Assembly (NCBI GenBank): GCA_964599475.1
Contig: CAZRFU010000001.1
Location: 33,828-97,827, forward strand
Reading direction: 5' to 3'
Source: an uncultured Thermoanaerobaculia bacterium
Lineage (GTDB): Bacteria; Acidobacteriota; Thermoanaerobaculia; Multivoradales; CAZRFU01
DNA length: 64,000 bases
Shown: positions 349-60,280 of the stretch, one piece after another
How the letters are laid out: each line of letters begins with the position of its first letter
Position numbering within the stretch: position 1 is the stretch's first letter
Notes under the pieces: model-generated
Databases searched by the model: none
What the model was told of the DNA's origin: nothing
Seen by the model: the letters and a program-made list of their open reading frames with translations, nothing else
Translations under genes and position numbers: made by a program

Positions 349-351
349 CGA

Positions 352-395
352 GGTACCGGCTACCAGGTACCGGTACTCCTCAGATCCCCGATCCA
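352..395. repeat. Short array of GGTACC/GATCCCC-type tandem units
   Basis: The sequence is ggtaccggctaccaggtaccggtac...gatccccgatcc. It belongs to the window-wide repeat family. Confidence 0.6.
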
Positions 396-4960: not shown

Positions 4961-5872
4961 ATGGCGAGAGAGGATTCGAACATGGTTTCGGCACTTTTCG
5001 ACCCGGCCCGGTGGAGGGCCGTCGAGGGATTCGGGTTTCGCGACATCACCTATCACCGCGCGGTCGACCAGGGGACCGTGCGGATCGCCTTCGACCGGCC
5101 GGAGGTGCGCAATGCGTTTCGGCCTCAAACGGTCGACGAGCTGGCGACCGCACTCGATCACGCCCGGCAGTCGAGCGACGTTGGATGTGTCCTGCTCACC
5201 GGCAACGGCCCTTCACCCAAGGATGGTGGGTGGGCGTTCTGTTCCGGCGGCGACCAGCGCATCCGCGGCGCCGACGGCTACAAGTACGAGGACGCCGGCG
5301 GAGTGGATCCCGCGCGGCTCGGGCGCCTGCACATTCTCGAGTGTCAGCGGCTGATCCGGTTCATGCCCAAAGTGGTGATCGCCGTGGTGCCGGGGTGGGC
5401 CGCCGGTGGGGGGCACAGCCTCCATGTGGTCGCCGATCTGACCCTCGCGAGCCGCGAGCACGCGGTGTTCAAGCAGACCGACGCCGACGTCGCGAGTTTC
5501 GACTCGGGCTACGGGTCGGCCCTGTTGGCTCGCCAGGTGGGGCAGAAGCGCGCGCGGGAGATCTTCTTCCTCGGCTTCGATTACAGCGCCGAGGAGGCGG
5601 TGGCGATGGGCGCCGCCAACGCGGCCGTGCCTCACGCGGAGCTGGAGAAGGTGGCACTCGAGTGGGCGGCGGAGATCAACTCCAAGAGTCCCACGGCGAT
5701 CCGCATGCTCAAGTACGGTTTCAACCTCCCCGACGACGGACTGGTTGGTCAGCAGTTGTTTGCCGGCGAGGCGACCCGGCTGGCCTATGGGACCGAAGAG
5801 GCTCAGGAGGGGCGCGACGCGTTCGTGGAGAAGCGCCCGCGCGACTTCTCGCGCTTTCCCTGGCGCTACTAG
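4961..5872 (+). CDS. menB: 1,4-dihydroxy-2-naphthoyl-CoA synthase (MenB; crotonase family)
   Basis: The DITYHRAVDQGTVRIAFDRPEVRNAFRP block matches MenB, and a crotonase-fold oxyanion region is present (GGDQ...GGG). The start could be 4961 or 4982. Confidence 0.8.
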   Translation: MAREDSNMVSALFDPARWRAVEGFGFRDITYHRAVDQGTVRIAFDRPEVRNAFRPQTVDELATALDHARQSSDVGCVLLTGNGPSPKDGGWAFCSGGDQRIRGADGYKYEDAGGVDPARLGRLHILECQRLIRFMPKVVIAVVPGWAAGGGHSLHVVADLTLASREHAVFKQTDADVASFDSGYGSALLARQVGQKRAREIFFLGFDYSAEEAVAMGAANAAVPHAELEKVALEWAAEINSKSPTAIRMLKYGFNLPDDGLVGQQLFAGEATRLAYGTEEAQEGRDAFVEKRPRDFSRFPWRY

Positions 5873-5955
5873 CAGGCTGCTAGCAGTTCCCCATACACCC
5901 TCCGGTGCACCCCGGCCGATGAAAGCGGGCCGTACCCAGTACCCGGTACCAAACC
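5873..5955. repeat. Composite intergenic repeat: variant core hairpin element plus GTACCC tandem units
   Basis: The sequence is gctagcagttccccatacaccctccggtgcaccccggccgatgaaagc...gtacccagtacccggtacc. It is a divergent copy of the core at 14850 and 22968. Confidence 0.7.
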
Positions 5956-7946: not shown

Positions 7947-8027
7947 TTGCCGGATTGTAGCTGGGCGAGCCCAGGCGCTGGGGGGCGATGCTGCCGGCGC
8001 CGGCCACCAGTCCCTTCCCTGAGAAGT

Positions 8028-8112
8028 TGCCCATGCAGCCCTCCGTGGTGCACCCCGGAGGATGAAAATCCGGTCTTCAGTACCCGGTACCTGGTACCCG
8101 GTACCCATTTTC
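8028..8112. repeat. Composite intergenic repeat: core hairpin element, (GGTACC)n tandem, and CCCATTTTCTGAGCAGG terminus
   Basis: The sequence is ccatgcagccctccgtggtgcaccccggaggatgaaaatc, then tacccggtacctggtacccggtacc, then cattttctgagcagg. Confidence 0.8.
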
Positions 8113-8161
8113 TGAGCAGGCACTCGGCCCCGCAGACGAGGTCCCACACAGGGGCGCCGGT

Positions 8162-9949: not shown

Positions 9950-10740
9950 AGTCGACCCCGATCGTTCGCGACAATCGCGGCGCCTCGCACCTCGGGACCG
10001 TCGTGTGTCTTCACGGCCTGGGCGAGTCCGCGCTCTCCTTCGCGCCGCTGTTGGCGGACCCGCGGCTTCAAGGCTGGAGAGTCATCGCCGTCGATCTGCC
10101 GGGCTACGGGAGATCACCCGCTGCGGCGGACCATCGCGGCCTCCTCGACCACGTCGACAGCGTCGGATCGTGGCTGGCCGGGCAGGACATCGGGCCGGTG
10201 GTCCTGGTTGGCCACTCGATGGGTGGGGTCGTGGCGGTCGCCTGTGCCGAGCGATTCCCCGAGCTCATTCGGGCGATCTTCGATGTCGAGGGCAACGTTA
10301 CTCCGGATGACTGTGCCTACAGTGGTCCCATTTCCGCGATTCCGGAAGAGCGATGGCCGCTGCCCGGGCTCGCCAGCATTCGTGAACGCGTCTGGCGCGC
10401 TGCGCAGGACGACGAGGCTCACCGTCGCTACTTCGCGAGCCTGGCCTTCGCCGATCCGCTGGTCCTGCGCCGCGATGCGCTCGACCTGGTGGCGTGGTCT
10501 GCGCGGGGGGATCTCGCGTCGCGTCGAGCACGGCTGTCGCTACCGCTGGAGTACGTGGCGGGAGAGCCCGGCGGTGCCGGCGCCGCGTCGCGCGCCGCCC
10601 TCCAGACTGCCGGGGTGGAATGGTCGACGATCGCACCGGCGGGCCACTGGCCCTTCGTCGATCAGTACGACAGCTTCGTCGAGCGGCTCGTCGCGTTCCT
10701 GGAGCGGCTGGAGAAAGGGACTGAGGGACAAAGGGACTGA
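9946..10740 (+). CDS. Alpha/beta-fold hydrolase
   Basis: The start ATG overlaps the MFS stop (ATGA). It has an HGLGES oxyanion region and a GHSMGG nucleophile elbow. The last 10 or so codons lie inside a GGGAC-type tandem repeat. Confidence 0.7.
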   Translation: MKSTPIVRDNRGASHLGTVVCLHGLGESALSFAPLLADPRLQGWRVIAVDLPGYGRSPAAADHRGLLDHVDSVGSWLAGQDIGPVVLVGHSMGGVVAVACAERFPELIRAIFDVEGNVTPDDCAYSGPISAIPEERWPLPGLASIRERVWRAAQDDEAHRRYFASLAFADPLVLRRDALDLVAWSARGDLASRRARLSLPLEYVAGEPGGAGAASRAALQTAGVEWSTIAPAGHWPFVDQYDSFVERLVAFLERLEKGTEGQRD

Positions 10741-10773
10741 GGCGACGGGAACGAGGGACAACGGGACGGACGA
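10706..10773. repeat. Tandem 8-nt GGGACNNN repeat array overlapping the hydrolase 3' end
   Basis: The sequence is gggactga gggacaaa gggactga ggcgacgg gaacgagg gacaacgg gacggacg. It is the reverse-complement flavour of the GGTCCC arrays. Confidence 0.65.
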
Positions 10774-11158: not shown

Positions 11159-11203
11159 CGATCGAGTTTACAGCGGATCCCTGATCCCTAATCCGACATC
11201 GCG

Positions 11204-13708: not shown

Positions 13709-14623
13709 ATGAGCCGTGCGCGCACTCTTGCTTTCGGACTCCTCGTGTCGGCGGTGGGCGGACTTGCTCCGGCGACTTTTGCGGTCGGTGAGGGTCGCAT
13801 TCACGGGACCATCAGTGACGAAGAGGGCAACCCGCTCAGCGGAGTCACCATCCAGGTCACTACTCCCGAGCGTCCGACGTTCGAGCTCGAGGAGTCCACG
13901 GACGCCAAGGGTGCGTATGCCTTCACCATCCGGGACGCGTCCCTCATCTACACCTATCGATTCAGCAAGTCGGGGTACCAAACCCTCGAGCATGTAGAGC
14001 GAATCCCCTTGCACACGAACACCAAGCGTGATTTCACGCTGAAGACCGAACGTGCTGGCGGAGCCGCGACCGCGGTCTTCAACGAGGGGGCCGTAGCTGC
14101 GCAGGCGAAGGACTACGCTACCGCCGAGGCCAAGTTCAAAGAGGCCGTGGCTCTCGATCCGGCGCTGGCGCCAGGATGGTCGGCTCTCGCGGCGATCTAC
14201 CTCGAACAGGGCAAGACTGCCGAGGCCGCGGCGATGGCGGACAAGGCGGTGGAGCTTGCTCCCGACGTGGCGCGCCACCAGCACCTGCGCTACGAGGCGT
14301 GGCGCCTAGCCGGCAACGCGGAGAAAGCCGCCGAGGCGAAGGCAGCGTTCGAGAAGCTCGACCCCAAGGGCATGGTGATTCCGCTGGTCAACCAGGGGAT
14401 CGAGGCCTTCAACCAGGGTGACATCCCGGCCGCGACCAAGGCCCTCGAACAGGCAATCGCGCTGGACGACACCAACATCAAGGGCCTGTTCACGCTGGGG
14501 CTGTGCTACGTCAATGCCGGTAACTCGGCCAAGGCGAAGGAGACGTTCGAGAAGTACCTCGCCCTCGCTCCGGCCGACGATCCGGACATGGCCACCGCCA
14601 AGGAGATGGTCTCGTACCTCTAG
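13709..14623 (+). CDS. Secreted protein: carboxypeptidase-regulatory-like domain plus TPR repeats
   Basis: The start is ATG at 13709 with a signal peptide (MSRARTLAFGLLVSAVGGLAPATFA). An Ig-like CarbopepD_reg-type segment follows (GRIHGTISDEEGNPLSGVTIQVT), then Ala-rich TPRs. Confidence 0.5.
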   Translation: MSRARTLAFGLLVSAVGGLAPATFAVGEGRIHGTISDEEGNPLSGVTIQVTTPERPTFELEESTDAKGAYAFTIRDASLIYTYRFSKSGYQTLEHVERIPLHTNTKRDFTLKTERAGGAATAVFNEGAVAAQAKDYATAEAKFKEAVALDPALAPGWSALAAIYLEQGKTAEAAAMADKAVELAPDVARHQHLRYEAWRLAGNAEKAAEAKAAFEKLDPKGMVIPLVNQGIEAFNQGDIPAATKALEQAIALDDTNIKGLFTLGLCYVNAGNSAKAKETFEKYLALAPADDPDMATAKEMVSYL

Positions 14624-14624
14624 G

Positions 14625-15012
14625 CCTAGCAAGCTCGTGGTGCACCCCGGTCTGACGGAAATGGGAACCGGCCGCGGACGGGCACCAAGGTACTGGGTAG
14701 CGGGTACCCGGGTACTGGCCCGGAGCGCCCGCGGCATTTGCTGAGCAGTTCCTCATGCACCCCTCCGTGGTGCACCCCGGAGGATGAGAATCAAGCCCGC
14801 CGTCCGGTCTGGGTTCCGGATCCCTGGTCCCGGGTCCCTGGTCCCGGGTCCCCATTTGCTGAGCAGTTCCCCATGCACCCCTCCGTGGTGCACCCCGGCC
14901 GATGAGAATCAGGTCCCTGATCCCTGATCTCCGGTACCCATTTTCCCAGCAGGCTGCGAGCCCATCTTCCTCGCTTCCGGGAGTACCCGGTACCCGGTAC
15001 ACCCGCTACCCC
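14625..15012. repeat. Large composite repeat cluster: at least two full and two partial core hairpin elements interleaved with tandem units
   Basis: Cores lie at 14734-14810 and 14850-14912 (TTGCTGAGCAGTTCC[C/T]CATGCACCCCTCCGTGGTGCACCCCGG...GATGAGAATCA). Partial cores lie at 14628-14650 and 14937-14961. Tandem units include ggtcccgggtccctggtcccgggtcc and gtacccggtacccggtac. Confidence 0.85.
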
Positions 15013-15013
15013 T

Positions 15014-16509: not shown

Positions 16510-18621
16510 ATGGTCGCCGAAGGGAGTAGCGGGAGACTTCGAGAGCTGGGGCTCCTCAGGCTCTTGGTCGCGCTGCCCTTGGTCGTCGCCGCGATCGCCT
16601 GGGTGATGATGCCGATCGTGTCCTATGACACGGATATCTGGTATCACCTCGCAGATGGGAGGAAGATCGTCCAGACTGGGGAGATTCCCCACACACTGGA
16701 TTTCTCTTTTCTGGCTCAGCGTGAGTGGGTCGACTACTTCTGGGGATTCCAGGCACTCCTCTACACGGTCTTCGATGCGTTCGGTTTCGGAGGCTTGATC
16801 GGTCTTCGCGCCGTGCTGTTCGTCGCCGTGCTGGGCTGCATCACGGCCTTGCTCTGGCCAGCCGGTGTGGTGTGCTGGCGTTCGTGGCTTGCCACCGCGG
16901 CAGTAGTCAGCTGCTACGCCGTGATTCTCGGGCCGAGGTATCACCTCGTGCGCCCGCACACCGTCAGCTATCTCCTGATCGTGGTGGTTCTGTACATCAC
17001 AACTCGTCGGCCCAAGTGGGTATTGGCCCTTCCGCTCGTGGCGCTGGTGTGGGTCAACGTTCATGGGGTCACATTTCCGGTCTTGCTGTTATGCCTGGGG
17101 TCGCTGTTCGCCGACCAGGTGGTCGGGAGAGTGAAGGATCCGGGCGGTTCTCAGCGAACAGAGCCTCTTCTGGCAGTGTTGCTGGGCGCTGCGGCGGTAC
17201 TGGCCACTCCGGCTGGCTCAGCACTGCTCCCGCTTCCTTTTGCGGATTGGCGCTTCGCCGCCGGCTACATCGAGGAGTTGGGCAAGCAGAGCCTGGGTGA
17301 CATCTTCGGTTTGGAATTCGAGGGCCTCGGGCTTTCCCAGGGTTCGGCGCTGACGGTTGTGGGCGCCATGGCGGTCGCTGGGCTGTGGAGGTTGCGCGGT
17401 CGTTGGTTGAGCGGAACTGGCGCGTTGGTTCTCGCGGCAGGCGGTTTGGTGTTGTTCCTGCGGGGGCATCGCTTTGGGGTCGAGTTCTCGCTGCTGCTCT
17501 TGCCCCTGATCAGGGTCAGCCTTGGGGGGGCTGAGAGGTGGACACGGGGAATCGTCACCTGGGTCGTCGCCTTGGTGTGGCTCTCGGGTTGCGCTGCCGT
17601 GTGGAAGGGTACCGAGGCAGGGAGGTGGGCAGGGCCTGTTGCGCCTTTCCGCCTGCCGCAGGGCGCCGTCGAGTACCTCAAGCGGGACCCGCTGCCAGGG
17701 ACGGTCATGAACCCTCCGGCCGTGGGTGGTTACCTCCTGTGGGCGCTGCCGCCGAGGTTCCAGTTTGCGATGGACATGAAGGTGCCCATTGTCTTCACCG
17801 ATCAGGATTTCTTTCTCGCTGATGGGTTCTACTGGCATGGGCCGATCCTCGACCGAGTAATCGCCGAGCACGATCCGACCTACGTGATGCTGCCGCTCAG
17901 CTCGGAGCCTTCCCTGCGTCGACTCCGGCAGCGGGCGCCTGAATATTCGCCGGTGTTCTTCGACGATACCGTTGTACTCTTTGCCGACCTGCAGCAACGC
18001 CCGGGAGCCCGCGTGCTCGAATCCATCGACCCCTATCGGCTCGACAACGGCGAGTCGATCCCCGAGTTCGACGCTGAAACCTCTGTAGTGGTCTCCCGAG
18101 AGCTCAACTATCTGCTGTCGATCCACCCGACCGGCTTGCTGACCAACCAGCTCAAGGCGATTCTGGCCACGCGCGCCGCACGGTTCGAGGAGGCCGAGCG
18201 CGCTGCGCGAGCCGTGATCGCCGTCGTTCCTGGCGGAGTCGCCGGTTGGCTGCTGCTTGGCGATGCTCGATCGGGACTCGGTGAACTGGACCGGGCAATC
18301 GAGGCCTATCGCCATGCAGAGCGGGTCGCGAGTGCTGCGGAGCGGCCGAAGGCCCTGCGGTCGCTCGCCATCGCACTGGCACGGGCGGGCAAGTCGGCTG
18401 AGGCTTACCGCACGATGGTCGAATTCTCCGGTTGGTACAATCCTGAAGTTTCGCTCGACGACTTGGAGCTTCTGGGTGGGCTCGCCGTGGAGCAGGGAGA
18501 TCTGGAGGCTGGGGCCAAGGTGCTGGAGCTGGTTCTGCTTCGAAGCTCGCCCGAGGACCGCAGCCGCGTGGATCGCGTGCGGAAGGTGCTCGCCGACCTT
18601 TCTGCGCTCACGGCCCAGTAG
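16510..18621 (+). CDS. Polytopic membrane protein (GT-C-like) with C-terminal TPR repeats
   Basis: It has at least 10 TM helices with an acidic first loop (YDTDIWYHLADGRKIV). The C-terminal 200 aa or so is TPR-like. This architecture resembles the TMTC/PMT class. Confidence 0.5.
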   Translation: MVAEGSSGRLRELGLLRLLVALPLVVAAIAWVMMPIVSYDTDIWYHLADGRKIVQTGEIPHTLDFSFLAQREWVDYFWGFQALLYTVFDAFGFGGLIGLRAVLFVAVLGCITALLWPAGVVCWRSWLATAAVVSCYAVILGPRYHLVRPHTVSYLLIVVVLYITTRRPKWVLALPLVALVWVNVHGVTFPVLLLCLGSLFADQVVGRVKDPGGSQRTEPLLAVLLGAAAVLATPAGSALLPLPFADWRFAAGYIEELGKQSLGDIFGLEFEGLGLSQGSALTVVGAMAVAGLWRLRGRWLSGTGALVLAAGGLVLFLRGHRFGVEFSLLLLPLIRVSLGGAERWTRGIVTWVVALVWLSGCAAVWKGTEAGRWAGPVAPFRLPQGAVEYLKRDPLPGTVMNPPAVGGYLLWALPPRFQFAMDMKVPIVFTDQDFFLADGFYWHGPILDRVIAEHDPTYVMLPLSSEPSLRRLRQRAPEYSPVFFDDTVVLFADLQQRPGARVLESIDPYRLDNGESIPEFDAETSVVVSRELNYLLSIHPTGLLTNQLKAILATRAARFEEAERAARAVIAVVPGGVAGWLLLGDARSGLGELDRAIEAYRHAERVASAAERPKALRSLAIALARAGKSAEAYRTMVEFSGWYNPEVSLDDLELLGGLAVEQGDLEAGAKVLELVLLRSSPEDRSRVDRVRKVLADLSALTAQ

Positions 18622-22425: not shown

Positions 22426-25251
22426 TTAGCCGCGCAGACTCATATCGAGGGGCGAGAAGGAAGGGTGAACGGGGGGCGGGCGGAACAGAGGGCCTCGTCC
22501 CTTGCCAGTTCCCCGTCCCTCTTCCCCCCAAACACAACGGCCGCGCTCATCGCGCGGCCGTTGCCCAATCCGGAGGAGCGGCGAGCTCAGGGAGCGTCGA
22601 AGCCGAACTTCTGGTAGTTCATCCCGATGTACTTCTTCCACTCGTCCGGGACCTCTTCCATTGGGAAGATCGCCTGAACCGGGCAGGCATCGACGCACAG
22701 GCCGCAGTCGATGCATTCCTCGGGATGGATGAAGAGTTGGTTCCAGTCCTCGTTCTTGCCATAGATGCAGTCGACCGGGCAGACATCCACGCAGGATGTG
22801 TCTTTCACGTCGACGCACGGCTCGGCGATGATGTGGGGCATCTCGGGTCCTTTCGTTGGCCAGCGCGAGAACATGCTCGCTCGCTGCGGATTCTAGCAGG
22901 GGGACCAAGGTACCGGGTACCAGGTACCGGGTACCCGTCGGAGCGCCGGAGGCCTCTTCCGAGCGGTTCCCCATGCACCCCTCCGTGGTGCACCCCGGAG
23001 GATGAAAATCAAGCCCGCCGTCCGGTCTCCGTTCCGGCCCGGTCCCGGGTCCCCGGTCCCCGGTACCTCCCGCCCGGGCCTTCAGCCATGCCACAGCGGC
23101 CTCCAGCACCTCGTCGCGGCCGGCAGCGATGCCGGCGCGGGTTGGTGTCACGACGACGTCGGGGATGACTCCGCGTCCGCGGATGTTGCCGTCTGGACCG
23201 TGGGCAGACATCCCGGTGAAGTAGAGGCGATAGCCCGCCGGGAGCCACAGGCCGGTGAAGTTGCCGTTGGTACCGGCAGACGGGCTGCCGACGATGGTGG
23301 CGAGGCGCTGTTCGGCGAACATGGTGAGGAGGGTTTCGGCGTAGCTCAGGGCGTTGTGGTCGGCCAGCACCACGATCGGGGCGCGGAGCCGCGGTTCGAG
23401 CGGCGGCACGGTCCACCGCGAGCATTGCGGAATGCCGGCGCCCGGCCGGTCGCGCTCCGGGATGCAGAACTGGGGACCCGCCAGTGGTCGATCGCTCAGA
23501 TGGCCGAGTTTGGATTCGGAGATCACTGGATACCCGCGCAGGTCGAAGATCACGCCGGTTGCTGCGGCGAGCCTCGGCAGGACTTGCTCCCAGGTGGTGT
23601 CGTCGACCCGCCGCAGGTCGAGCGAGAGCACGCCATCAGCCTCGACCCGCAGGCTCGGCCGTTCGTCGACCAGGAGCTTGCCGAGGCTGCCGGCCGGTCG
23701 AGCGGCAAGCGCGACCGTGCGCCGTGCTCCGTCGATACCCTCCGCCTCGACCTCGACCAGGTGTGGGGCTGAGCGCAGGACCAGGTTCTCGAGGGCACGA
23801 GCACGTCGGTGGGGCTCGGTCGCGCCGGCGGTTCGTGCGAGGGCGTCGAGCAGGGCTTGATCCATCGTCCGCCCGTCGAAGCGAAGGAGCCGATCGCCGA
23901 CTCGCACCTCAGAAACGTCGTCGGCGGTGCGAGTGACGACGACCTCGCCATCGATGTCGGCCACGAGGAAGGGCAGGCGGAACTCGCGGCCACCCTCGGG
24001 CCGCCCGAGCAACGCGTGACCGTCGTTGGTCGCACCGACCAGGCGCTCGAGCGCGTGGGTCGCCTCGCTCGCCGAGCCCGCAACGGCGAGCTCGCGCAAG
24101 GCTCGCCGCAGGACGTCCTCCCACGCGGCGGAACCGGGTGGACGTTCGGGATCGAACTGCTCGAGCACGCCCCAGGCGAGAATCGCCGTGGCCAAGCGGG
24201 TCGACCGATCTGTCGCCGACGGCGCCCACCCTGCTGGGCGTACCGGGATCGGGCCGGCTGCCGGCGCCCCGGTGGCGCAGGTGTCGAGGGGGATGTCGGC
24301 CTCGAGTCCCTCGCCGAGATCGACCGTGGCGCGACGCGCGTCGGTGGTGGGGACGAAGCTGCTGCGAAGCTCGAACGCCGCCATCGGCACGTCGAAAGGT
24401 GCGCCCAGGTAGGTGCGCCGGTGCGAGCCACCCGGGCAGAGCGACGACCCCTGTCCGCTCGGCGAAGCTTCGATCGACAACCCCGGTGCGAGTGGGCCGA
24501 GAGTGGCCATCAGTGCTTCGGCCGGAACCCCTGGGTGGTTCTCCACCTGTTCGACGGCGGCGATGGCTGCGAGATCCCAATCGACCGGCGGATCCGCAAC
24601 CGGGCCGAAGAAACGCAGGATCGAAAGCAGGCGTGCGAGCATCACCAGGCGGGTTTCGCCATCCGCCGAGAGCGGCGCGGCAGATTTATCACCCATGCCG
24701 AGGGCGATCCCAACCTTCGCGTCGAGATCGGCGAGGCCGAAAGTGCCTGCGCCGAAGGCCGCGACCTCGATCAGCACCGCATCAGCGTCGTCGCCGACCT
24801 CGACGACGAGCCCGGCCGGCGCCCATGTGTTGGGCAGTCCGCGGCCGGGACTTTCGACGCGAAACAGGCGTTCGCCGCTGTCCTTGACCGCGGTGGCAAT
24901 CAGCCGAGCGACCCCGCTGTGTTCGGGTTGCGGTGCGGACCAGGTCAGGGCGCGCAGGTGGAGCCTGTGCCCCCGCCACGGTGTGGCGTCGACACGCTGG
25001 ACCAACCGTGCAGCCGGTACCAGAGGTCCCGTCGCCCGCTCGCAACGCAGGACCGCCGCCCACCGGCCCCCCAGCCGCTCGCGCTCGAGTGCGCAGGCGC
25101 CGCCGGTCCGATCGTCGAGTTTCCACGCCTCGAGCGCCGCAGGACGGGAGAAGTCACCACGGATCGCAACCGCTCCCGCCTCCGGCGACTCGGGTGCCGT
25201 GCCGCTACCGAGGGTGGCGATCGCCAGTACCACCGTGCCGAGCCGCGGCAC
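22426..25251 (-). CDS. S41-family C-terminal processing peptidase (tail-specific-protease-like); the 3' end reads through a repeat insertion
   Basis: The probable start is GTG at 25251, immediately after the DUF72 stop, followed by a signal peptide (VPRLGTVVLAIATLGSGTA). S41 blocks are present (DLRGYPVISE, ADHNALSYAETL, SPSAGTNGNF, GVIPDVVV). The homologous part ends near 23070 (AVAWLKARAGG). No in-frame stop occurs until 22426, so the frame continues through the repeat and antisense to fdx. The 3' boundary is uncertain. Confidence 0.55.
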   Translation of the reverse strand: MPRLGTVVLAIATLGSGTAPESPEAGAVAIRGDFSRPAALEAWKLDDRTGGACALERERLGGRWAAVLRCERATGPLVPAARLVQRVDATPWRGHRLHLRALTWSAPQPEHSGVARLIATAVKDSGERLFRVESPGRGLPNTWAPAGLVVEVGDDADAVLIEVAAFGAGTFGLADLDAKVGIALGMGDKSAAPLSADGETRLVMLARLLSILRFFGPVADPPVDWDLAAIAAVEQVENHPGVPAEALMATLGPLAPGLSIEASPSGQGSSLCPGGSHRRTYLGAPFDVPMAAFELRSSFVPTTDARRATVDLGEGLEADIPLDTCATGAPAAGPIPVRPAGWAPSATDRSTRLATAILAWGVLEQFDPERPPGSAAWEDVLRRALRELAVAGSASEATHALERLVGATNDGHALLGRPEGGREFRLPFLVADIDGEVVVTRTADDVSEVRVGDRLLRFDGRTMDQALLDALARTAGATEPHRRARALENLVLRSAPHLVEVEAEGIDGARRTVALAARPAGSLGKLLVDERPSLRVEADGVLSLDLRRVDDTTWEQVLPRLAAATGVIFDLRGYPVISESKLGHLSDRPLAGPQFCIPERDRPGAGIPQCSRWTVPPLEPRLRAPIVVLADHNALSYAETLLTMFAEQRLATIVGSPSAGTNGNFTGLWLPAGYRLYFTGMSAHGPDGNIRGRGVIPDVVVTPTRAGIAAGRDEVLEAAVAWLKARAGGTGDRGPGTGPERRPDGGLDFHPPGCTTEGCMGNRSEEASGAPTGTRYLVPGTLVPLLESAASEHVLALANERTRDAPHHRRAVRRRERHILRGCLPGRLHLWQERGLEPTLHPSRGMHRLRPVRRCLPGSGDLPNGRGPGRVEEVHRDELPEVRLRRSLSSPLLRIGQRPRDERGRCVWGEEGRGTGKGRGPLFRPPPVHPSFSPLDMSLRG
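22523..22561 (-). terminator. Rho-independent-type terminator downstream of the ferredoxin gene
   Basis: A 10-bp perfect stem (ACGGCCGCGC / GCGCGGCCGT) has a 5-nt loop. On the minus strand it is followed by TTGTGTTTGGGGGG. Confidence 0.5.
22587..22841 (-). CDS. 7Fe-type ferredoxin (FdxA-like)
   Basis: The start is ATG at 22841 (MPHIIAEPCVDVKDTSCVDVCPVDCIY...CIDCGLCVDACP). It has the classic [3Fe-4S][4Fe-4S] cysteine spacing. Confidence 0.85.
   Translation of the reverse strand: MPHIIAEPCVDVKDTSCVDVCPVDCIYGKNEDWNQLFIHPEECIDCGLCVDACPVQAIFPMEEVPDEWKKYIGMNYQKFGFDAP
22901..23070. repeat. Composite repeat: (GGTACCN)4, variant linker, core hairpin element, then (GGTCCC/GGTCCCC) units
   Basis: The core at 22968-23032 (ttccccatgcacccctccgtggtgcaccccggaggatgaaaatcaagcccgccgtccggtct) is identical to the copies at 14760 and 14880. 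Confidence 0.85.
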
Positions 25252-26963: not shown

Positions 26964-27671
26964 TCACTCGAGCCAGCGAACCCTGCCGGAGCCGATGTCG
27001 TGGATTGCGCCGACGACCTCGAGCTCTCCGGCCTCGATCAGTTCCCGGATCAAGCTGCTGTCGCGGCGAATCCGCTCGACTGTCAGGCGCACGTTGGTTT
27101 CGGTGACCGCGGCAACGAAGGCCGGGTTCGAGCCACTTCGCGGCTCCGGCCCAGGGGTCGCGGCGACCGCCGGTTCGATCTGGTCGAGCAGGCCGGTGAG
27201 GTGGCCGAGCTCGGCACCGTCACAGGCGCCGACGATCGCCCCGCAGTGATCGTGACCCAGCACCACGACCACTTTCGATCCCATCAACTTGGTGGCGAAC
27301 TCGAGGCTGCCGAGCAATTCGTCGGTGACGATGTTGCCGGCGATCCGGCCGACGAAGAGGTCTCCAAGCCCTTGGTCGAACACCAGCTCGGGAGAGGCAC
27401 GCGAGTCGAGGCAGGCGATCACCGCGGCGAAGGGCCGTTGGCCGGCGGCGCTGCTGGCACGTTCGGCCTTCCAGTTGCGAGCCTTGAGGTGGTCGGTCGT
27501 CCAGCGTTCGTTTCCGGCCCGCAGGCGCTCGAGGGCCTGACGCGGCGTCATCGCCTGCTGGTCGGCCTGCGACAAGGTGGTGGTGCGGGGTGCCGGACCT
27601 CGATGGGCGCAGCCCCCGAGGACGGCTACGGACAGGAATCCTCCAAGGAACACTGATGTCACGCGCTGCAT
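26964..27671 (-). CDS. Beta-class carbonic anhydrase with a lipoprotein-type signal peptide
   Basis: The start is ATG at 27671 (MQRVTSVFLGGFLSVAVLGGC). The zinc ligands are CLDSR ... HDHCGA. Confidence 0.8.
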   Translation of the reverse strand: MQRVTSVFLGGFLSVAVLGGCAHRGPAPRTTTLSQADQQAMTPRQALERLRAGNERWTTDHLKARNWKAERASSAAGQRPFAAVIACLDSRASPELVFDQGLGDLFVGRIAGNIVTDELLGSLEFATKLMGSKVVVVLGHDHCGAIVGACDGAELGHLTGLLDQIEPAVAATPGPEPRSGSNPAFVAAVTETNVRLTVERIRRDSSLIRELIEAGELEVVGAIHDIGSGRVRWLE

Positions 27672-27740
27672 CGTCGTCTCCGGAGCAGTTTCGGCCAGTG
27701 TAGCGGATCGCCGAGGTCGGGTGCAGGGCCCGGGTTGCCC

Positions 27741-27782
27741 TGCGGCGACCGATCCATGCTCCGATCCCCGATCCCCGATCCC
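27741..27782. repeat. Short (GATCCCC)3 tandem array
   Basis: The sequence is ccgatccatgctccgatccccgatccccgatccccc, between the carbonic anhydrase start and the end of the isoprenoid operon. Confidence 0.5.
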
Positions 27783-27783
27783 C

Positions 27784-28584
27784 CTAGGCCCGCGGTACCA
27801 GCGTGCCGACTCGCCCCTCCCGGCGCAGAGCGGAGGCGAGGGCGCCGGGCGTCGTCCCATCGAAGATCCAGGACTCGACGCCGCTGCGCGCGAGCTCGAG
27901 GGCGGTATCGACCCGCAGCCTCACGCCGCCGGTGACATCGACGCCGGCGGCGCCCGCAAGGGCGTGGTCGAGCTCGGCTCTTCGTTGCTGATCGACCAGT
28001 GGGACCAGCTCGCCGTTCCGGTCGAGGATGCCTGGCGTGGCTCCTGCCCACAAGGCTCGGTCGACTCGCCAGCCGGTCTGCGGCAAGGCGTCCACCAAGG
28101 CTGCGAAGACCTGCTCGGTCGAGGCGATGGTGGTTCCAAGGCGCGCGTCTGCGACGATATCTCCGCAGACCACGGGGATCGCCCCAGCCTCGAGGGCTCC
28201 GGCCAGGGCGTCGACCGAGGCCATGAGTACACTGCCTCCGGCGAGGGTGAGCCAGGCAGCTGGGCGCAGAGACAGCGCCGGCAGCCGCGCTGTGACCAGC
28301 GCACTGAGAAGAAGTCGGTGAAGCTCTCCAGCGGCGAGTTGAACTCGGGCAGCCGCAAGCGTTCGCGCAGCTCCGGTGCGCTCGCGAAAGCGGTGTCGAT
28401 GGGCGGCCCAGTGGCCGAAGGAGCCGCTGCCGTGCCCCAGGATCACCGCCGGCGCGTCGGGTCGGGCGGTGACTGAGGTGAGCTCCTCGGCCAGGCGCTC
28501 GATCACCTCGCGGCGCAGCGCCCGCGGCCGCTGCTTGTCGGTCAGCAGGCTGCCCCCGAGCTTGACCAGCGTGACCGGCCGCAT
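27784..28584 (-). CDS. Isopentenyl phosphate kinase (amino-acid-kinase fold)
   Basis: The start is ATG at 28584 (MRPVTLVKLGGSLLTD...). It has the KLGGS motif and a His-containing IPK-type region (ILGHGSGSFGH). It is the last gene of the isoprenoid operon. Confidence 0.7.
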   Translation of the reverse strand: MRPVTLVKLGGSLLTDKQRPRALRREVIERLAEELTSVTARPDAPAVILGHGSGSFGHWAAHRHRFRERTGAARTLAAARVQLAAGELHRLLLSALVTARLPALSLRPAAWLTLAGGSVLMASVDALAGALEAGAIPVVCGDIVADARLGTTIASTEQVFAALVDALPQTGWRVDRALWAGATPGILDRNGELVPLVDQQRRAELDHALAGAAGVDVTGGVRLRVDTALELARSGVESWIFDGTTPGALASALRREGRVGTLVPRA

Positions 28585-29585
28585 CAAAACAGGTGCTCGG
28601 AGCTGATCGCAGGTCCGTTGCCGACGTGGTCGCTGATGACCTCCTCGACGCCTGGAACCGCGCGCAGGAGCGCTGCCAGATCGGCCGCCGACCGGCTTTC
28701 GCAGATCGCGTGGACGTTGGCTCCGGCGTCCATCGTCGCCCAGGCCGGCAGGCCGTCCCGGCGGGCCCGGCGGACCGCTTCGAGCACCGCCAGGGTGGCC
28801 GGGCGCCAGTAGAAGATCGGCGGCCGCGACGACATCGCGATCAGGTGCAGCTCGATCGCCTCCTCCTCGAGCACCGGGCCGAGGAGGTCGAGGCGGCGTT
28901 CTTCGATCGCCAGTCGGACGGCGGCCAGACGGGTCGGCAGCAGGTTGCGACGGGTCTCGAAGTGGGGGCTCGTCGCGGCGCGGCGATGACCGTCGATCGA
29001 GGCGACGTCCTTCTCGGCCGTTTCGACGACCGCGATCACGTCGGCGAGATCCCAATGGGAGGCTGGGAAGAGGGATGCCGCCGGGGCGTCGGGGTCGTCG
29101 CCCGGAGGGGCCGGCCACTCGACATATCCGCCGAGCACCGACCGGCTGGCCGAGCCCGAGCCCGACAGCCGCGCGCGGATCGACAGCTCCCGCCCACTCG
29201 GCTGCTCTCCGAGAGCGCTCGAGACGGCGGTGGCGAGAGCCGCAAAACCGGAGGCCGAGCTTGCCAGGCCGGCAGCGGCAGGGAAGCTGTTGCGGGTGGC
29301 GACGCGGAAGCCGCGGCCGGTGCCGATGTGCGCGCGCAGACGCTCGAGATGTGCCAGCACCCGGGCGGCGAAGCGTTCGGGTGCCACTCTGGCGGTACCC
29401 AGGGAATCGATCAGCTCGATCGAGTCGGCGGCGCCCTCTGGCAGCGCTTCGACCGTGGTCGTGGTGGCGCAGACCGACAGAGTCATCGAGATCGACGGAT
29501 CGAGCGGCAGCGCCGAGCTCAGGTCGCGGGCGCCCCAATACTTGACGAAGGCGATGTTGGCCGGGGCGACGATGGTGGTCTTCAT
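28584..29585 (-). CDS. Diphosphomevalonate-decarboxylase-family enzyme (MVD or phosphomevalonate decarboxylase)
   Basis: The start is ATG at 29585 (MKTTIVAPANIAFVKYWG...). It is a GHMP-kinase-fold MVD family member (SSASGFAALA). It overlaps its neighbours by 1 nt on each side. Confidence 0.8.
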   Translation of the reverse strand: MKTTIVAPANIAFVKYWGARDLSSALPLDPSISMTLSVCATTTTVEALPEGAADSIELIDSLGTARVAPERFAARVLAHLERLRAHIGTGRGFRVATRNSFPAAAGLASSASGFAALATAVSSALGEQPSGRELSIRARLSGSGSASRSVLGGYVEWPAPPGDDPDAPAASLFPASHWDLADVIAVVETAEKDVASIDGHRRAATSPHFETRRNLLPTRLAAVRLAIEERRLDLLGPVLEEEAIELHLIAMSSRPPIFYWRPATLAVLEAVRRARRDGLPAWATMDAGANVHAICESRSAADLAALLRAVPGVEEVISDHVGNGPAISSEHLF

Positions 29586-30664
29586 CAGGTCTCCTCGAGG
29601 CGTGCGCCGACGGCGCCGAGTGTGGTGGTCAGGGGCGACCAACCCAGTAGGGCTGGCTCGAAGCGCTCGAACGGATCGTGGGCGAGGACGGCGCCCGCGC
29701 CGGGATCGGACAGCGCACCAGCGCCCGAGATCTTCGCACTGATGCCTCGCCGACCGAGGGCCTCCAGCTGTTGACGGACTGCGGGTGGTACCACGCCGAG
29801 GTGTTCGAGTGCCTGTTCGCAGTCGTCGATGGCCACCGCCAGGTTGCGGCCGTCGCCCGCCACCAGCGCATCGCGCAGCCGGTGGGTGGCGGCGCCGATT
29901 CGATCGTTGGCGGCCTCGACCACATCCGGGTGCAGGTTGGCGAGTCGTCGAACGGCAGCGACCACCGCTCCAGTGGTTTCGTTGGGGCGCCCGGAATCGG
30001 CCAGCGCCAGATGACTGAGGAGCTGCGGTTCAGCGACCACGGGACTGACCTCGAGCTGCTCTCCCCAACCCGCTCCTTGGTCGTCGGCGCCCGCAGCCAA
30101 CCGACGGCTGATCCAACATACGCCGCCGTGGAGCACTGCGGCGTTGTCGATCCCCGATGGCCGGCCGTGCTGCAGCCGCTCGACCGCGAGCGAGGCGTCG
30201 AAGAGTGTCGCGGGCTCGAGGAGGTGCCCCAGTGCCGCTGAGCCGGCTTGGAGCACCGCCACGGCCAGGGCGGCTGAGCTTCCGAGGCCGGCGCCGAGAG
30301 GGATTTCCGAGGTGACCACGAGCCTCAGCGCCGGCATCCGGTCGATGGCGAGGCGACGACCGAGCTCGTGCAGCGTCGCAGCGATGTGCGCGAGCGGGTC
30401 CTTGGTCCCGAGCGGGGCGCCGGGGTCCGCGCACCAGCGATGCCAGGCAGCCTCCGCGGCTTGGGCGAGGTCGTGTGCGCGGTCGCACGCGAGGTCGTGG
30501 CGGGTGCCTGCGAGGTGGATCTGGTGGTTGGTGCCCGCGACGGTTGCCGCCTCCACGCTCAGCCGCAACCCGATCGCAGCGATCAGGGCGGGCCGGCCCC
30601 ACACCGCTGCGTGTTCTCCGGCCAGGATCGCCTTCCCCGGCGCCGAGGCGACCGCAGCAGGCAT
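29585..30664 (-). CDS. mvk: Mevalonate kinase (GHMP kinase)
   Basis: The sequence APGKAILAGEHAAVWG and the GHMP motif PLGAGLGSSAAL are present. Confidence 0.8.
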   Translation of the reverse strand: MPAAVASAPGKAILAGEHAAVWGRPALIAAIGLRLSVEAATVAGTNHQIHLAGTRHDLACDRAHDLAQAAEAAWHRWCADPGAPLGTKDPLAHIAATLHELGRRLAIDRMPALRLVVTSEIPLGAGLGSSAALAVAVLQAGSAALGHLLEPATLFDASLAVERLQHGRPSGIDNAAVLHGGVCWISRRLAAGADDQGAGWGEQLEVSPVVAEPQLLSHLALADSGRPNETTGAVVAAVRRLANLHPDVVEAANDRIGAATHRLRDALVAGDGRNLAVAIDDCEQALEHLGVVPPAVRQQLEALGRRGISAKISGAGALSDPGAGAVLAHDPFERFEPALLGWSPLTTTLGAVGARLEET

Positions 30665-30671
30665 CGTCGGA

Positions 30672-33087: not shown

Positions 33088-33114
33088 AGTACCCGGTACC
33101 CGGTACCCAGTACC
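33088..33114. repeat. (GTACCCG)3-type tandem array
   Basis: The sequence is gagtacccggtacccggtacccagtacc, upstream of fni. Confidence 0.5.
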
Positions 33115-40976: not shown

Positions 40977-41032
40977 GCGCGGATCTTCTCGGCCGGGGCT
41001 CAGGACGGAGGGGTGCATGGGGAGCTGCTAAA

Positions 41033-46126: not shown

Positions 46127-46222
46127 CGATACCCCCTGCTTCCGTCCCTGATCCCTGGTCCCGGTCCCTGGTCCCTTCCGCTCCGTCCGATACCCGATAC
46201 CCGATACCCAGTACCCGATACC
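46127..46222. repeat. Tandem array of GGTCCCT / GATACCC units
   Basis: The sequence is gatccctggtcccggtccctggtccc ... cgatacccgatacccgatacccagtacccgatacc. Confidence 0.7.
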
Positions 46223-47834: not shown

Positions 47835-47937
47835 AGGTACCGGGTACCGGGACCCGGGACCAGAGTGGGAGCCGGACCCATTCGGACGGAACCGGCCCGC
47901 GCTCCGACGAGTCCCCGGTCCCTGGTCCCTGGTCCCC
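47835..47937. repeat. Composite tandem array (GGTACCG/GGGACCC ... GGTCCCT)
   Basis: The sequence is ggtaccgggtaccgggacccgggacc ... ccggtccctggtccctggtcccc. Confidence 0.7.
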
Positions 47938-59267: not shown

Positions 59268-59330
59268 GGGGACCCGGGACCCGGGACCCGGGATCCGGAC
59301 CTAACCCCTAACCCCGAACCCCGAACCCCT
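59268..59330. repeat. Tandem (GGGACCC)4 + (AACCCCT/GAACCCC) array
   Basis: The sequence is gggacccgggacccgggacccgggatcc ... taacccctaaccccgaaccccgaacccc. Confidence 0.7.
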
Positions 59331-60250: not shown

Positions 60251-60280
60251 ATCCCCGTACCCAGTACCCGGTACCCAATC
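60251..60280. repeat. Short (GTACCC) tandem units
   Basis: The sequence is gatccccgtacccagtacccggtaccc. Confidence 0.5.

Follow-up and report, generated by a model that had tools for sequence, protein, structure and literature searches.

A mosaic repeat family of heptamer arrays and dispersed core modules, probably non-coding, in intergenic DNA of a Thermoanaerobaculia bacterium

Described repeat families and the composite locus

BOX elements of Streptococcus pneumoniae, Correia/NEMIS and ERIC are intergenic repeats of 100-200 nt with inverted ends, and their presence or absence varies between strains; BOX is also modular (boxA-(boxB)n-boxC), with a variable number of internal units. The small dispersed repeats (SDRs) of the cyanobacterium Nostoc punctiforme are reportedly 21-27 nt long, mobile-looking and embedded in other repeats, including heptameric tandem repeats. 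G-rich heptamers, among them the classical cyanobacterial STRR heptamers, are known from Xanthomonas (GGGAATC) and Nostoc (GGGGA(C/T)T) (Rehm et al. 2015, PMC4692102). About 90% of these arrays are intergenic, four units is their modal length, and the unit number varies among close relatives; just past a stop codon their G-rich sequence lies on the sense strand, and shortly ahead of a start codon it lies on the antisense strand, convergent plus/minus pairs are frequent, and neither a link to IS elements nor a regulatory role was found (PMC4692102). The REP tag is defined as an unpaired GTAG or CGTC at the stem end, and RAYT-like tyrosine transposases have been reported from other Acidobacteria (Di Nocera et al. 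2013, PMC3733652). BIMEs are defined as palindromic units in alternating orientation (Nunvar et al. 2010, PMC2817692).

We analysed 64 kb of contiguous DNA from an uncultured Thermoanaerobaculia bacterium (the window, meaning that whole stretch) together with relatives, covering about 150 kb of the lineage. The intergenic repeat family found there is, with a probability of roughly 0.6, lineage-specific mosaic repeat DNA that is non-coding and not a gene. The family probably resembles fast-changing selfish or neutral repeat DNA, unlike an RNA gene, and "MITE/BIME-like mosaic repeat" is the description that fits it best.

The heptamer arrays of the family correspond to an already described class, the G-rich heptameric simple repeats of Xanthomonas and Nostoc, and, judged by sequence, probably belong to it: they are tandem 7-nt units with a G3-4 tract, intergenic with a bias to non-coding DNA, about four units long, polar, frequently in convergent pairs and variable in unit number. 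They differ in their Acidobacteriota host, in the coexistence of several unit types and in the many units that embed a palindrome, and they are joined to a core, a core 2 and linkers, a coupling that is not described for Xanthomonas/Nostoc in PMC4692102. An earlier sequence-only reading of the window made no link between the arrays and this class.

Like REP, REPIN and BIME families (PMC3733652; PMC3116915; PMC2817692), the family is short, extragenic, palindrome-containing and species-specific; it likewise lies mostly in unidirectional or convergent gaps, forms mosaics with few linker motifs and amplifies in tandem within clusters. Unlike REPs and REPINs, it has no GTAG/CGTC tag beside the stem, its clustered copies are direct and not inverted, its 57-nt unit is far longer than the palindrome, its stem is not maintained and its spacers are heptamer arrays; no RAYT occurs in the window or in the relatives' annotated loci. 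The linker-mosaic build of BIMEs is shared (three linker types, CATTTTCTGAGCAG, CGTCGGAGCGC), but their alternating orientation is not, all being direct. Size, inverted ends, intergenic siting, presence/absence differences and modular build recall bacterial MITEs and BOX, but the ends here are degenerate heptamer arrays with no defined terminal inverted repeats, and no target-site duplication was seen; to our knowledge, the family has no parent IS.

A complete element has the order G-array, linker, core, linker, C-array. In the composite locus in focus here, two full core modules spaced 118 nt apart are accompanied by a half-core, one G-type array, three C-type arrays and a terminal motif:

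14624..15013, plus strand: composite locus; it takes up the whole gap in which a TPR gene (+) and a PIN-PhoH gene (-) converge
14636..14650, plus strand: half-core CGTGGTGCACCCCGG, right half of the palindrome (repeat family and weak profile match)
14689..14718, plus strand: G-type array GGTACTG GGTAGCG GGTACCC GGGTACT
14735..14791, plus strand: core copy 1, CATTTGCTGAGCAG...GATGAGAAT (profile E 1e-22)
14792-14820, plus strand: linker A, after core copy 1
14811..14852, plus strand: C-type array (GGTCCCN) x6 (TRF; the minus strand satisfies the G4 motif)
14853..14909, plus strand: core copy 2, tandem duplicate 118 nt downstream of copy 1 and 92% identical to it
14912..14952, plus strand: C-type array GGTCCCT GATCCCT GATCTCC GGTACC with terminal boundary motif CATTTTCCCAGCAG (TRF, repeat family)
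14982..15002, plus strand: C-type array (GTACCCG) x2.6, adjoining the PhoH stop codon (TRF)

The array at 14689-14718 is complementary to that at 14983-15000 (inverted pairs, 87-89%). The stem of core copy 2 is broken because its right arm reads CGGCCG.

Heptamer arrays and their polarity

The family occupies further loci across the window:

351..395, plus strand: G-type array (GGTACCR) right after a stop codon, then a short C-type GATCCCC array (TRF)
5876..5950, plus strand: diverged core 5876-5924 (3-nt palindrome deletion) and C-type array 5932-5950 (E 2e-8); the enoyl-CoA hydratase stop codon falls inside the end motif CTAGCAGGCTGCTAGCAG
8013..8119, plus strand: core 8013-8069, linker B CCGGTCTTCA, C-type array 8080-8106 and terminal CATTTTCTGAGCAG
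10710..10767, plus strand: G-type array of period 8/16, GGACAAAGGGACTGAG, overlapping a stop codon (TRF)
11176..11194, plus strand: C-type array (GATCCCT) x2.7 between divergent genes (TRF), one of two exceptions to the polarity rule
22893..23067, plus strand: complete single element, with CTAGCAG end motif, G-type array 22909-22935, linker CGTCGGAGCGCC, core 22953-23009, linker A and C-type array 23038-23067
27759..27784, plus strand: C-type array (CCCCGAT) x3.3, adjoining a stop codon (TRF)
33088..33114, plus strand: C-type array (GTACCCG) x3.7, then end motif GTACCTTGGTG (TRF)
40983..41031, minus strand: partial core, 5' half only, inverted, in the leader of a Ser/Thr kinase gene (E 5e-6)
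46144..46222, plus strand: two C-type arrays, (GTCCCTG) x4.9 and (GATACCC) x5 (TRF)
47836..47937, plus strand: second element type, with G-type array 47836-47861, a 47-nt core 2 AGTGGGAGCCGGACCCATTCGGACGGAACCGGCCCGCGCTCCGACGA and C-type array 47911-47937
59268..59330, plus strand: G-type (GGGACCC) x4.3 immediately behind the rho stop codon; a C-type array (CCCCTAA/CCCCGAA) x4.4 then extends to the following start codon (TRF)
60253..60277, plus strand: C-type array (GTACCCN) x3.6, adjoining the stop codon of a minus-strand gene (TRF)

Arrays were detected with TRF and with a lag-7 detector at strict and relaxed settings, using dinucleotide shuffles as the control. The results showed about 20 heptamer arrays in the window, spread over 15 of the 39 intergenic gaps of at least 45 nt. 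The strict detector found 8 arrays against 0.03 in the shuffles, and 17 of the 18 window arrays found at the relaxed setting lay inside non-coding DNA, which makes up 9.4% of the window. When the relatives were included, 32 of 34 arrays were non-coding in sequence that is itself 83-91% coding, with a median array of 27 nt (3.9 units). The family recognised in the sequence-only reading is thus real on the strict array count and on the six cores of the profile search, and both array methods recovered all the array coordinates given there, adding arrays at 11176 and 13589. Its statement that nearly all longer gaps carry repeats was too strong, given modules in 15 of 39.

The units follow G3-4N3-4 (GGGTACC, GGGACCN, GGGGATC, GGGTATC, GGGGTTN). 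Several unit types coexist and many embed a 6-bp palindrome (GGTACC, GGATCC, GGGWCCC), so that the arrays are self-complementary and hairpin-prone as well as G4-prone. GGTACC sites were 5.5-fold enriched in non-coding DNA (21 of 40, against 3.8 expected). G-type and C-type arrays are 71-89% complementary, and the ends of the elements are without sharp definition. Of 13 arrays lying within the left 40% of a gap, 11 were G-rich, and of 13 within the right 40%, 12 were C-rich: on entering a gap from either flanking gene, the strand read is G-rich. Convergent G/C array pairs occurred in the gaps at 349, 14624, 22843, 47823 and 59265. Strict polarity of this kind would also be expected from selection on 3'/5' untranslated regions, an observation that speaks against the selfish or neutral reading.

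The same properties could be read as selected cis-acting boundary signals, that is, terminators or attenuators, mRNA 3'-end stabilisers, G-quadruplex/i-motif insulators, or protein sites on the 22-bp palindrome. The arrays are strictly polar, with the same polarity in Xanthomonas and Nostoc, and lie close to stop or start codons, with a median spacing of roughly 15 nt. Canonical G4 motifs were rarer than expected in the window overall (13 against 21.5) but concentrated in arrays, which held 10 of the 13; the motif (G3+N1-7)x3 G3+, a sequence-level prediction of quadruplex potential, is satisfied by 10 arrays and not by several GGTACCR arrays. We nevertheless regard selected signals as quite unlikely, with modules in just 15 of 39 gaps, two of the six convergent gaps without any repeat module, and no regulatory role reported for the repeats in Rehm et al.

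The core module and its hairpin

The profile search returned six significant copies of the core (about 57 nt) in the window. Matches at 14737, 14855, 22955 and 8018 each had E values of 1e-20 to 1e-22, and weaker ones lay at 5882 (E 2e-8) and, on the minus strand, at 41031-40983 (E 5e-6). The full cores placed near 14734, 14850 and 22968 in the sequence-only reading were all recovered at E 1e-20 to 1e-22. Of its two diverged copies, that at 5883 is diverged (E 2e-8, 3-nt deletion), but that at 8031 is 90-95% identical to the full ones; its core list held up as far as it went but missed the minus-strand partial copy at 40983-41031, and cores are not all on the plus strand.

What the copies conserve is CATTTTCTGAGCAG-TTCCCCATGCACCCCTCCGTGGTGCACCCCGG-NN-GATGAAAAT; a linker of one of three types comes next, and ATTTTC...GAAAAT brackets the core. 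Alignment showed that the boundary motif CATTTTCTGAGCAG flanks each module on both sides and that the linker CGTCGGAGCGC recurs. The 22-nt palindrome CCTCCGTGGTGCACCCCGGAGG, centred on GTGCAC, is exact at 8040, 14762 and 22980 and has 2 mismatches at 14880 (shuffles, 0); its flanks read ...GCACC-stem-ATGA on one strand and ...TCAT-stem-GGTG on the other. Across about 120 kb from 3-4 assemblies the profile search returned 16 significant cores, most of them 90-100% identical even across two genomes. Pure neutrality would not predict so well conserved a core, and its conservation requires very recent spread, ongoing gene conversion or selection at the sequence level, for example on a protein-binding site.

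The potential hairpin of the core is CCUCCG-UGGUGCACCC-CGGAGG, with an alternative helix GCACC/GGUGC. Described earlier as perfect, it is so in some copies, but base pair 29-48 of the stem is broken in 7 of 16 and base pair 30-47 in 5 of 16; the 16 copies contained 0 compensatory changes, and the shuffle control was indistinguishable. Sequence is conserved more strongly than the stem. The RNAalifold consensus held 3 pairs at -0.59 kcal/mol, and the core folded no better than shuffles (z = -0.66); the complete element folded better than shuffles (z = -2.05). No match to the core was found in Rfam, even at E = 10, and no promoter or terminator was found for a core RNA. The orientation of the cores relative to transcription was mixed.

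These results bear on a further proposal of the sequence-only reading, a structured-RNA gene family, and on the related idea that the core is a cis-regulatory RNA motif. A potential hairpin with an alternative helix and intergenic copies are what such RNAs would offer, and folding and strand bias had been suggested as checks. We reject the structured-RNA interpretation as highly improbable because the hairpin is not kept, folding is no better than in shuffles, orientation is inconsistent and one ortholog has decayed (see below). For the boundary-signal interpretation, the better folding of the complete element and the conservation of the core beyond its stem, as in a double-stranded DNA protein site, count in favour, as does a GGTACC array followed by CATTTTCTGA, which has a terminator-like score. 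No other junction qualifies, and the one at 8086 runs antisense to the genes on either side. Against that interpretation stand the mixed orientation and the sequence behind the core hairpin, AUGAAAAUC, which contains no U-tract.

Several other candidates were rejected. A small ORF (MKIKPAVRS...) starting at an ATG past the hairpin has a Shine-Dalgarno spacing of 0, and its length and frame vary among copies. All 6 window copies share one orientation with respect to the upstream gene, but a cluster in a relative (contig L016) contradicts a fixed orientation, and orientation does not follow GC skew either. An IHF-type site in GAAAATCAAGCCCGCC lacks the TTR part of the consensus, and neither of the two mutually exclusive helices of a riboswitch-like switch covaries.

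Orthologous sites, distribution and spread

We compared the window with a close relative represented by independently assembled JGI contigs from other samples (L014, L016, L017, L021; 82-94% DNA identity). These contigs carry the family at orthologous and non-orthologous sites, with ordinary point divergence. Collapsed or chimeric reads might be suspected in a metagenome-assembled contig, where short GC-rich repeats are error-prone, but the independent assemblies hold the same elements at the same positions, with extra copies at unrelated loci; an assembly artefact is thus ruled out, its probability being practically negligible. The term "genome-specific" used earlier applies at the level of a narrow lineage.

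The comparison showed that the family is dispersed at non-orthologous sites and that its presence or absence differs between close relatives. The core and array of 8013-8119 are absent from the orthologous gap in L014, and the L021 gap orthologous to 40977/40983-41031 contains about 290 nt of extra mosaic that is absent from the window; both polymorphic sites are too diverged to place junctions. Core 2 recurs at L021 8125 (ortholog), at L021 1134 (non-orthologous) and at L016 5590-5631. Core 22953 shows 100% identity to a copy at a non-orthologous site but only 86% to its own ortholog, next to a left flank that is 98.9% identical. The ortholog has decayed in the relative with the gene context intact.

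Local amplification was shown to proceed by tandem duplication of whole 118-128-nt modules. At the 14624 site the relative has a single core in a 158-nt gap where the window has the 118-nt duplication, and L016 holds a 770-nt cluster of seven cores in which a 128-nt module recurs 2.4 times (96% identity). Clustered cores are all head-to-tail (7 of 7 in L016, and both at 14735 and 14853), and the 14-nt direct repeat that bounds the modules belongs to the element itself. Sequence loss was shown to occur by deletion between internal direct repeats of the core, TGCACCCC; a 15-nt deletion sits exactly between GGGGTGCA direct repeats.

The arrays also differ from those of the relative. Indels of 7-nt units were found at 46186 and 59300, the array at 59268..59330 being longer by one unit in the relative. 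The array at 27759 has 3 versus 2 units between the genomes and in the relative forms the junction of a 546-nt deletion, and the second array of 46144..46222 is (GATACCC) x5 in the window and (GATCCCC) x3 in the relative. In one array an A-to-C change runs in parallel across every unit.

These observations suggest a mechanism in two layers. In the first, heptamer arrays are simple sequence repeats at gene boundaries that gain and lose units and are homogenised, with replication slippage as the probable cause of change. In the second, dispersed modules lie between or beside arrays; they comprise the 57-nt core, core 2 with its 47 nt, and a small number of fixed linkers. New sites may be seeded by copy-and-paste, either with shared arrays as homology for recombination or gene conversion or through a candidate transposase acting in trans; against this reading, no empty and filled site pair with clean junctions was recovered in about 150 kb of the lineage. 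The family would then be selfish or near-neutral, with no selection on individual copy sequences, and any host effects would be by-products of hairpin-prone or G-quadruplex-prone DNA/RNA at gene ends. The decay of the 22953 ortholog in an intact gene context, core numbers per site that range from 0 or 1 up to 7, and the lack of the family in relatives at ~76% ClpB identity further count against selected boundary signals.

A true non-autonomous transposon of MITE or REPIN type, moved by a transposase encoded elsewhere (e.g. IS200/IS605, RAYT, TIRYT), is unlikely; the enzyme would recognise the inverted arrays or the palindromic core and then cut and paste or copy the element to intergenic sites. 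Complete elements do have an inverted G-array/C-array around a conserved centre and a core within ATTTTC...GAAAAT, presence or absence differs between relatives at two loci, dispersed copies are up to 100% identical, and other Acidobacteria have RAYT-like tyrosine transposases (PMC3733652). However, neither Pfam searches of the 64-kb window nor the JGI annotations of L014, L016, L017 and L021 revealed a transposase, a target-site duplication could not be defined, the tag is absent, clustered cores are all direct unlike those of REPINs and BIMEs, orientation does not track GC skew, and slippage or recombination between internal repeats accounts for much of the observed change. The earlier label "REP/MITE-like" stands for an extragenic, multi-copy, dispersed family with presence/absence differences, tandem amplification and inverted flanking arrays; it fails for canonical REPs (no GTAG/CGTC tag, direct copies, stem broken in 7 of 16), and the MITE hallmarks of target-site duplication and partner transposase could not be demonstrated.

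It is improbable, though conceivable, that arrays and cores together form a hitherto unrecognised self-propagating mosaic element, in which the polar arrays, G-rich at the 5' end of either strand, would act as "terminal inverted repeats" and a dedicated enzyme or nucleoid protein would bind them in the form of G-quadruplex, i-motif or hairpin DNA. If true, the polarity code shared by Xanthomonas, Nostoc and this Acidobacteriota lineage, members of three phyla, would reflect a general mechanism marking gene boundaries.

Outside the close relative, the family was absent from the next-closest Thermoanaerobaculia loci (48 kb sampled). A 20-mer scan of species-representative genomes gave 5 matches, 4 of them coincidental, and only the 692-bp contig L002 has the element; two of the coincidental matches proved to be coding when read (GPSVVHPG in Polyangiaceae). 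A core scan of JGI metagenome contigs gave 8 matches, all by chance in unrelated contexts, nothing was found in viral contigs, plasmids or phages, and an exact-protein look-up with ClpP returned only a 1.6-kb contig. As far as these sequence comparisons go, the core appears to be a new short dispersed repeat without Rfam, plasmid, phage or viral match.

The favoured reading, lineage-specific mosaic repeat DNA, accounts for most of the unusual intergenic sequence in the genome by one family. It extends the polar four-unit G-rich heptamer class, itself unexplained, from Gammaproteobacteria and Cyanobacteria to Acidobacteriota, and the physical coupling of arrays to conserved dispersed modules offers a handle on array origin and spread. 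The repeat loci could serve as hypervariable strain-typing markers for this uncultured lineage. They should not be annotated as sRNA genes or ORFs: a protein-database search with a chimeric six-frame core translation led to spurious ORFs called across other core copies, and public gene callers place 208-227-aa "hypothetical proteins" across repeat loci and extend one peptidase gene through a locus.

Core copies, arrays and module anatomy

The window (64 kb, ~67% G+C) had ordinary chromosomal gene content, including ligA, clpB-dnaJ, a mevalonate-pathway cluster, sodA, thyA-folA, tig-clpP-clpX-lon and rho, and its nearest named ClpB homologues were from Thermoanaerobaculia (Acidobacteriota) MAGs (~76% identity). 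A ClpB identical to that of the window has been recorded on a 143-kb NCBI contig. The sequence-only reading had proposed an intergenic repeat family, and this family proved real. The 22-nt core palindrome occurred in three exact copies and one with two mismatches, versus none in shuffles, and TRF detected period-7 arrays at every locus named in that reading. A strict lag-7 detector found 8 arrays, compared to 0.03 in dinucleotide shuffles, and a relaxed detector found 18, with 17 in non-coding DNA (9.4% of the window). The statement that almost every longer gap carries such repeats was too strong: of the 39 gaps measuring 45 nt or more, 15 contained a module. GGTACC was enriched 5.5-fold in non-coding DNA, and many array units contained 6-bp palindromes, a local peculiarity that makes the arrays self-complementary too. 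Searched with a profile derived from the full copies, the window yielded six significant cores.

Core matches in the profile search
5882: significant core
8018: significant core
14636: half-core
14737: significant core
14855: significant core
22955: significant core
41031-40983, minus strand: partial core, overlooked by the sequence-only reading

Near the partial core, a Ser/Thr kinase probably starts at ATG 41057 or 41069 rather than at 41225 (added stretch 41057-41224), giving a CPxC...CPxC zinc-ribbon N-terminus; the second ATG (41069) is the one kept in the close relative described below. With this start, the partial core (40983-41031) would fall in the kinase 5' leader.

We aligned 16 core copies. 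The conserved unit was CATTTTCTGAGCAG-TTCCCCATGCACCCCTCCGTGGTGCACCCCGG-NN-GATGAAAAT, with a hypervariable NN (AG, CC, GG or GC), followed by one of three linkers. The boundary motif CATTTTCTGAGCAG recurred 3' of the array, so each module lies between 14-nt direct repeats.

Linkers and elements (G-type and C-type, G-rich and C-rich on the plus strand)
Linker A: CAAGCCCGCCGTCCGGTCTCCGTTCCGG, then (GGTCCCN)n
Linker B: CCGGTCTTCA, then (GTACCCN)n
Linker C: GGGGCCGCCTCGCACCGCCACCAAG, then (GTATCGG)n, then CGTCGGAGAGCGCTCGGGGG
22893-23067: complete single element; CTAGCAG end motif, G-type array, CGTCGGAGCGCC, core, linker A, C-type array
47836-47937: core 2 (47 nt), a conserved centre between inverted arrays

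The cluster end motif CTAGCAG(G)CTGCTAGCAG, at 5868-5885 and 14621-14634, is a 15-nt palindrome including the rare tetramer CTAG. The TAG stop of the enoyl-CoA hydratase gene (5870-5872) comes from the CTAGCAG end motif.

Arrays as G-rich heptameric simple repeats

The heptamer repeats GGGAATC and GGGGA(C/T)T of Xanthomonas and Nostoc (Rehm et al. 2015, PMC4692102) are ~90% intergenic with a mode of four units, frequently form convergent plus/minus pairs, carry the G-rich strand as sense up to 50 nt past a stop or antisense up to 50 nt ahead of a start, differ in length among close relatives, and their function is not known (PMC4692102). Every one of these features was also true of the arrays here. 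In the window and its relatives, 32 of 34 arrays were non-coding, and the median length was 27 nt (3.9 units). Of the 13 arrays located in the leftmost 40% of a gap, 11 were G-rich on the plus strand, and of the 13 in the rightmost 40%, 12 were C-rich; this is the polarity rule of Rehm et al. expressed by position. Orthologous arrays in the relative acted like simple repeats: two differed by one 7-nt unit, and (GATACCC)n in the window corresponded to (GATCCCC)n, the identical substitution in each unit indicating homogenisation. On each testable criterion, the arrays are G-rich heptameric SSRs. Canonical G4 motifs were depleted overall (13 versus ~21.5 expected from mononucleotide shuffles), and 10 of the 13 fell within intergenic heptamer arrays.

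In the relative (L014), a 546-nt piece (27216-27761) of the beta-carbonic anhydrase gene (Pfam Pro_CA; 26964-27671, minus strand) is deleted, leaving a 42-aa remnant. The junction adjoins a (CCCCGAT)n array, which suggests that arrays are rearrangement hot spots. The mevalonate-pathway cluster (27784-31955, minus strand) was assigned via synteny with the relative's annotated genes; it comprises HMG-CoA reductase, GHMP kinases, a diphosphomevalonate-decarboxylase-like gene and an amino-acid-kinase-fold gene, and is adjoined by FMN-dependent dehydrogenase and squalene/phytoene synthase genes.

Copies in relatives and differences at individual sites

A 20-mer scan of species-representative genomes, a set without the source genome, found the element only on JAGQPW010000364.1 (692 bp at 1.4x coverage, placed in the bin of a Planctomycetaceae MAG). 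Its match to the window was limited to the repeat element. The contig is either mis-binned or a sign of the family in another lineage. A metagenome contig scan for the core gave chance matches only, and no core match was found in phages, plasmids or viral contigs. The relative, a syntenic JGI contig, was reached through a ClpB cluster member (L014, 82-94% DNA identity) and a ThyA homologue (L021, same contig). Two further JGI loci, L016 and L017, were reached by protein search with the six-frame core translation, which matched two "hypothetical proteins", both of them spurious ORFs called over additional copies. These are ORFs of 227 and 208 aa over core/array clusters (L016 3083-3766, L017 10001-10627), and a public peptidase S41 gene call (L014 6104-8551) extends across an element; all three are likely annotation artefacts. 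The 770-nt intergenic cluster at L016 2970-3740 held seven cores in a single orientation, with a 128-nt module repeated 2.4 times (96% identity between repeats). Across the window and the relatives' loci, the profile search gave 16 significant cores, and core 2 recurred in L016 and at a non-orthologous L021 site. Three more distant Thermoanaerobaculia ClpB loci (48 kb, similar G+C) contained neither arrays nor cores.

Window sites compared with the relative
14624-15013: 390 nt in the window versus a 158-nt gap with one core; the window extra is an inverted module between TGCACCCC direct repeats plus a 118-nt tandem duplication
7947-8161: relative without core, linker and array
40977: ~290 nt of additional mosaic in the relative, including core 2 plus a core from which 15 nt are deleted, exactly between its internal GGGGTGCA repeats
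22893-23067: element orthologous in the relative, left flank 98.9% identical; cores 81% identical along the alignment of the orthologs and 86% within the core proper

The window's core in the last element was 100% identical to a non-orthologous L017 copy. These differences fit a population of repeats undergoing duplication, deletion and decay as well as conversion or re-insertion, and do not fit site-by-site purifying selection. A selected boundary signal, which the positional polarity of the arrays might bring to mind, is improbable.

Class and origin of the family

The suggestion of a structured-RNA gene family did not survive. In the proposed hairpin, pair 29-48 was disrupted in 7 copies out of 16 and pair 30-47 in 5; none of the pairs changed on both sides among the 16, the shuffle control looked alike, and the alternative GCACC/GGTGC helix had no informative variation. 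The RNAalifold consensus kept 3 pairs (-0.59 kcal/mol), and folding of the core, a check proposed by the sequence-only reading, was no better than shuffles (z = -0.66). Rfam returned no core match, permissive thresholds included. Core orientation relative to transcription was mixed and did not correspond to GC skew: the cores at 8018, 22955 and 41031 were antisense, those of the L016 cluster were sense, and the L017 core lay in a divergent gap. An RNA gene or an assembly artefact is very improbable. An ORF from the ATG 3' of the hairpin was rejected, its frame and length varying among copies. Right beside the seven-core cluster, L016 3781-3825 (+) gave a near-threshold match to the Acido-Lenti-1 RNA motif (RF01687, Rfam; 35.6 bits versus a gathering score of 37, E = 4.6e-5), which had no match in the window.

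The label "REP/MITE-like" held for MITE size, inverted though not sharply bounded ends and insertion polymorphism, and failed on the testable REP/REPIN criteria: the core carries neither a GTAG or CGTC tag nor doublets in inverted orientation, and the stem is not kept (definitions, PMC3733652). Compared with BIMEs (PMC2817692), the family shares their mosaic-with-linkers build but lacks their alternating orientation. The family has no demonstrable target-site duplication or parent IS, and no transposase lies within the 64-kb window. A transposase-driven MITE is unlikely, though ahead of a boundary signal. As arrays are SSRs, the core fails as a REP/REPIN on the testable points and BIME/MITE features are partly shared, we filed the family as a BIME/MITE-like mosaic in which arrays of simple heptamer repeats are coupled to dispersed cores specific to the lineage.

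The data revealed a dispersed, polymorphic family in which modules were amplified in tandem, deletions were bounded by repeats, units were gained and lost, homogenisation took place and one orthologous copy had decayed. We favor lineage-specific mosaic repeat DNA, largely selfish or neutral (probability about 0.6), which would spread by copy-and-paste, either via homology between arrays or by the action of an unseen transposase, and may have structural side-effects at gene ends. The chief counterpoint to neutrality is that most cores are 90-100% identical, even between genomes, which keeps in play a possible protein-binding or transposase-recognition role of the core.

Elsewhere in the window, 61003-61896 (minus strand) encodes a bacterial archaeo-eukaryotic release-factor-like (baeRF) family 3 protein. 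A 703-aa TPR-containing gene (16510-18621, +) lies between PIN-PhoH and ClpB, which are adjacent in the relative without it. Its G+C (0.625, the lowest in the window) and strong AT skew (-0.256) are consistent with recent acquisition.
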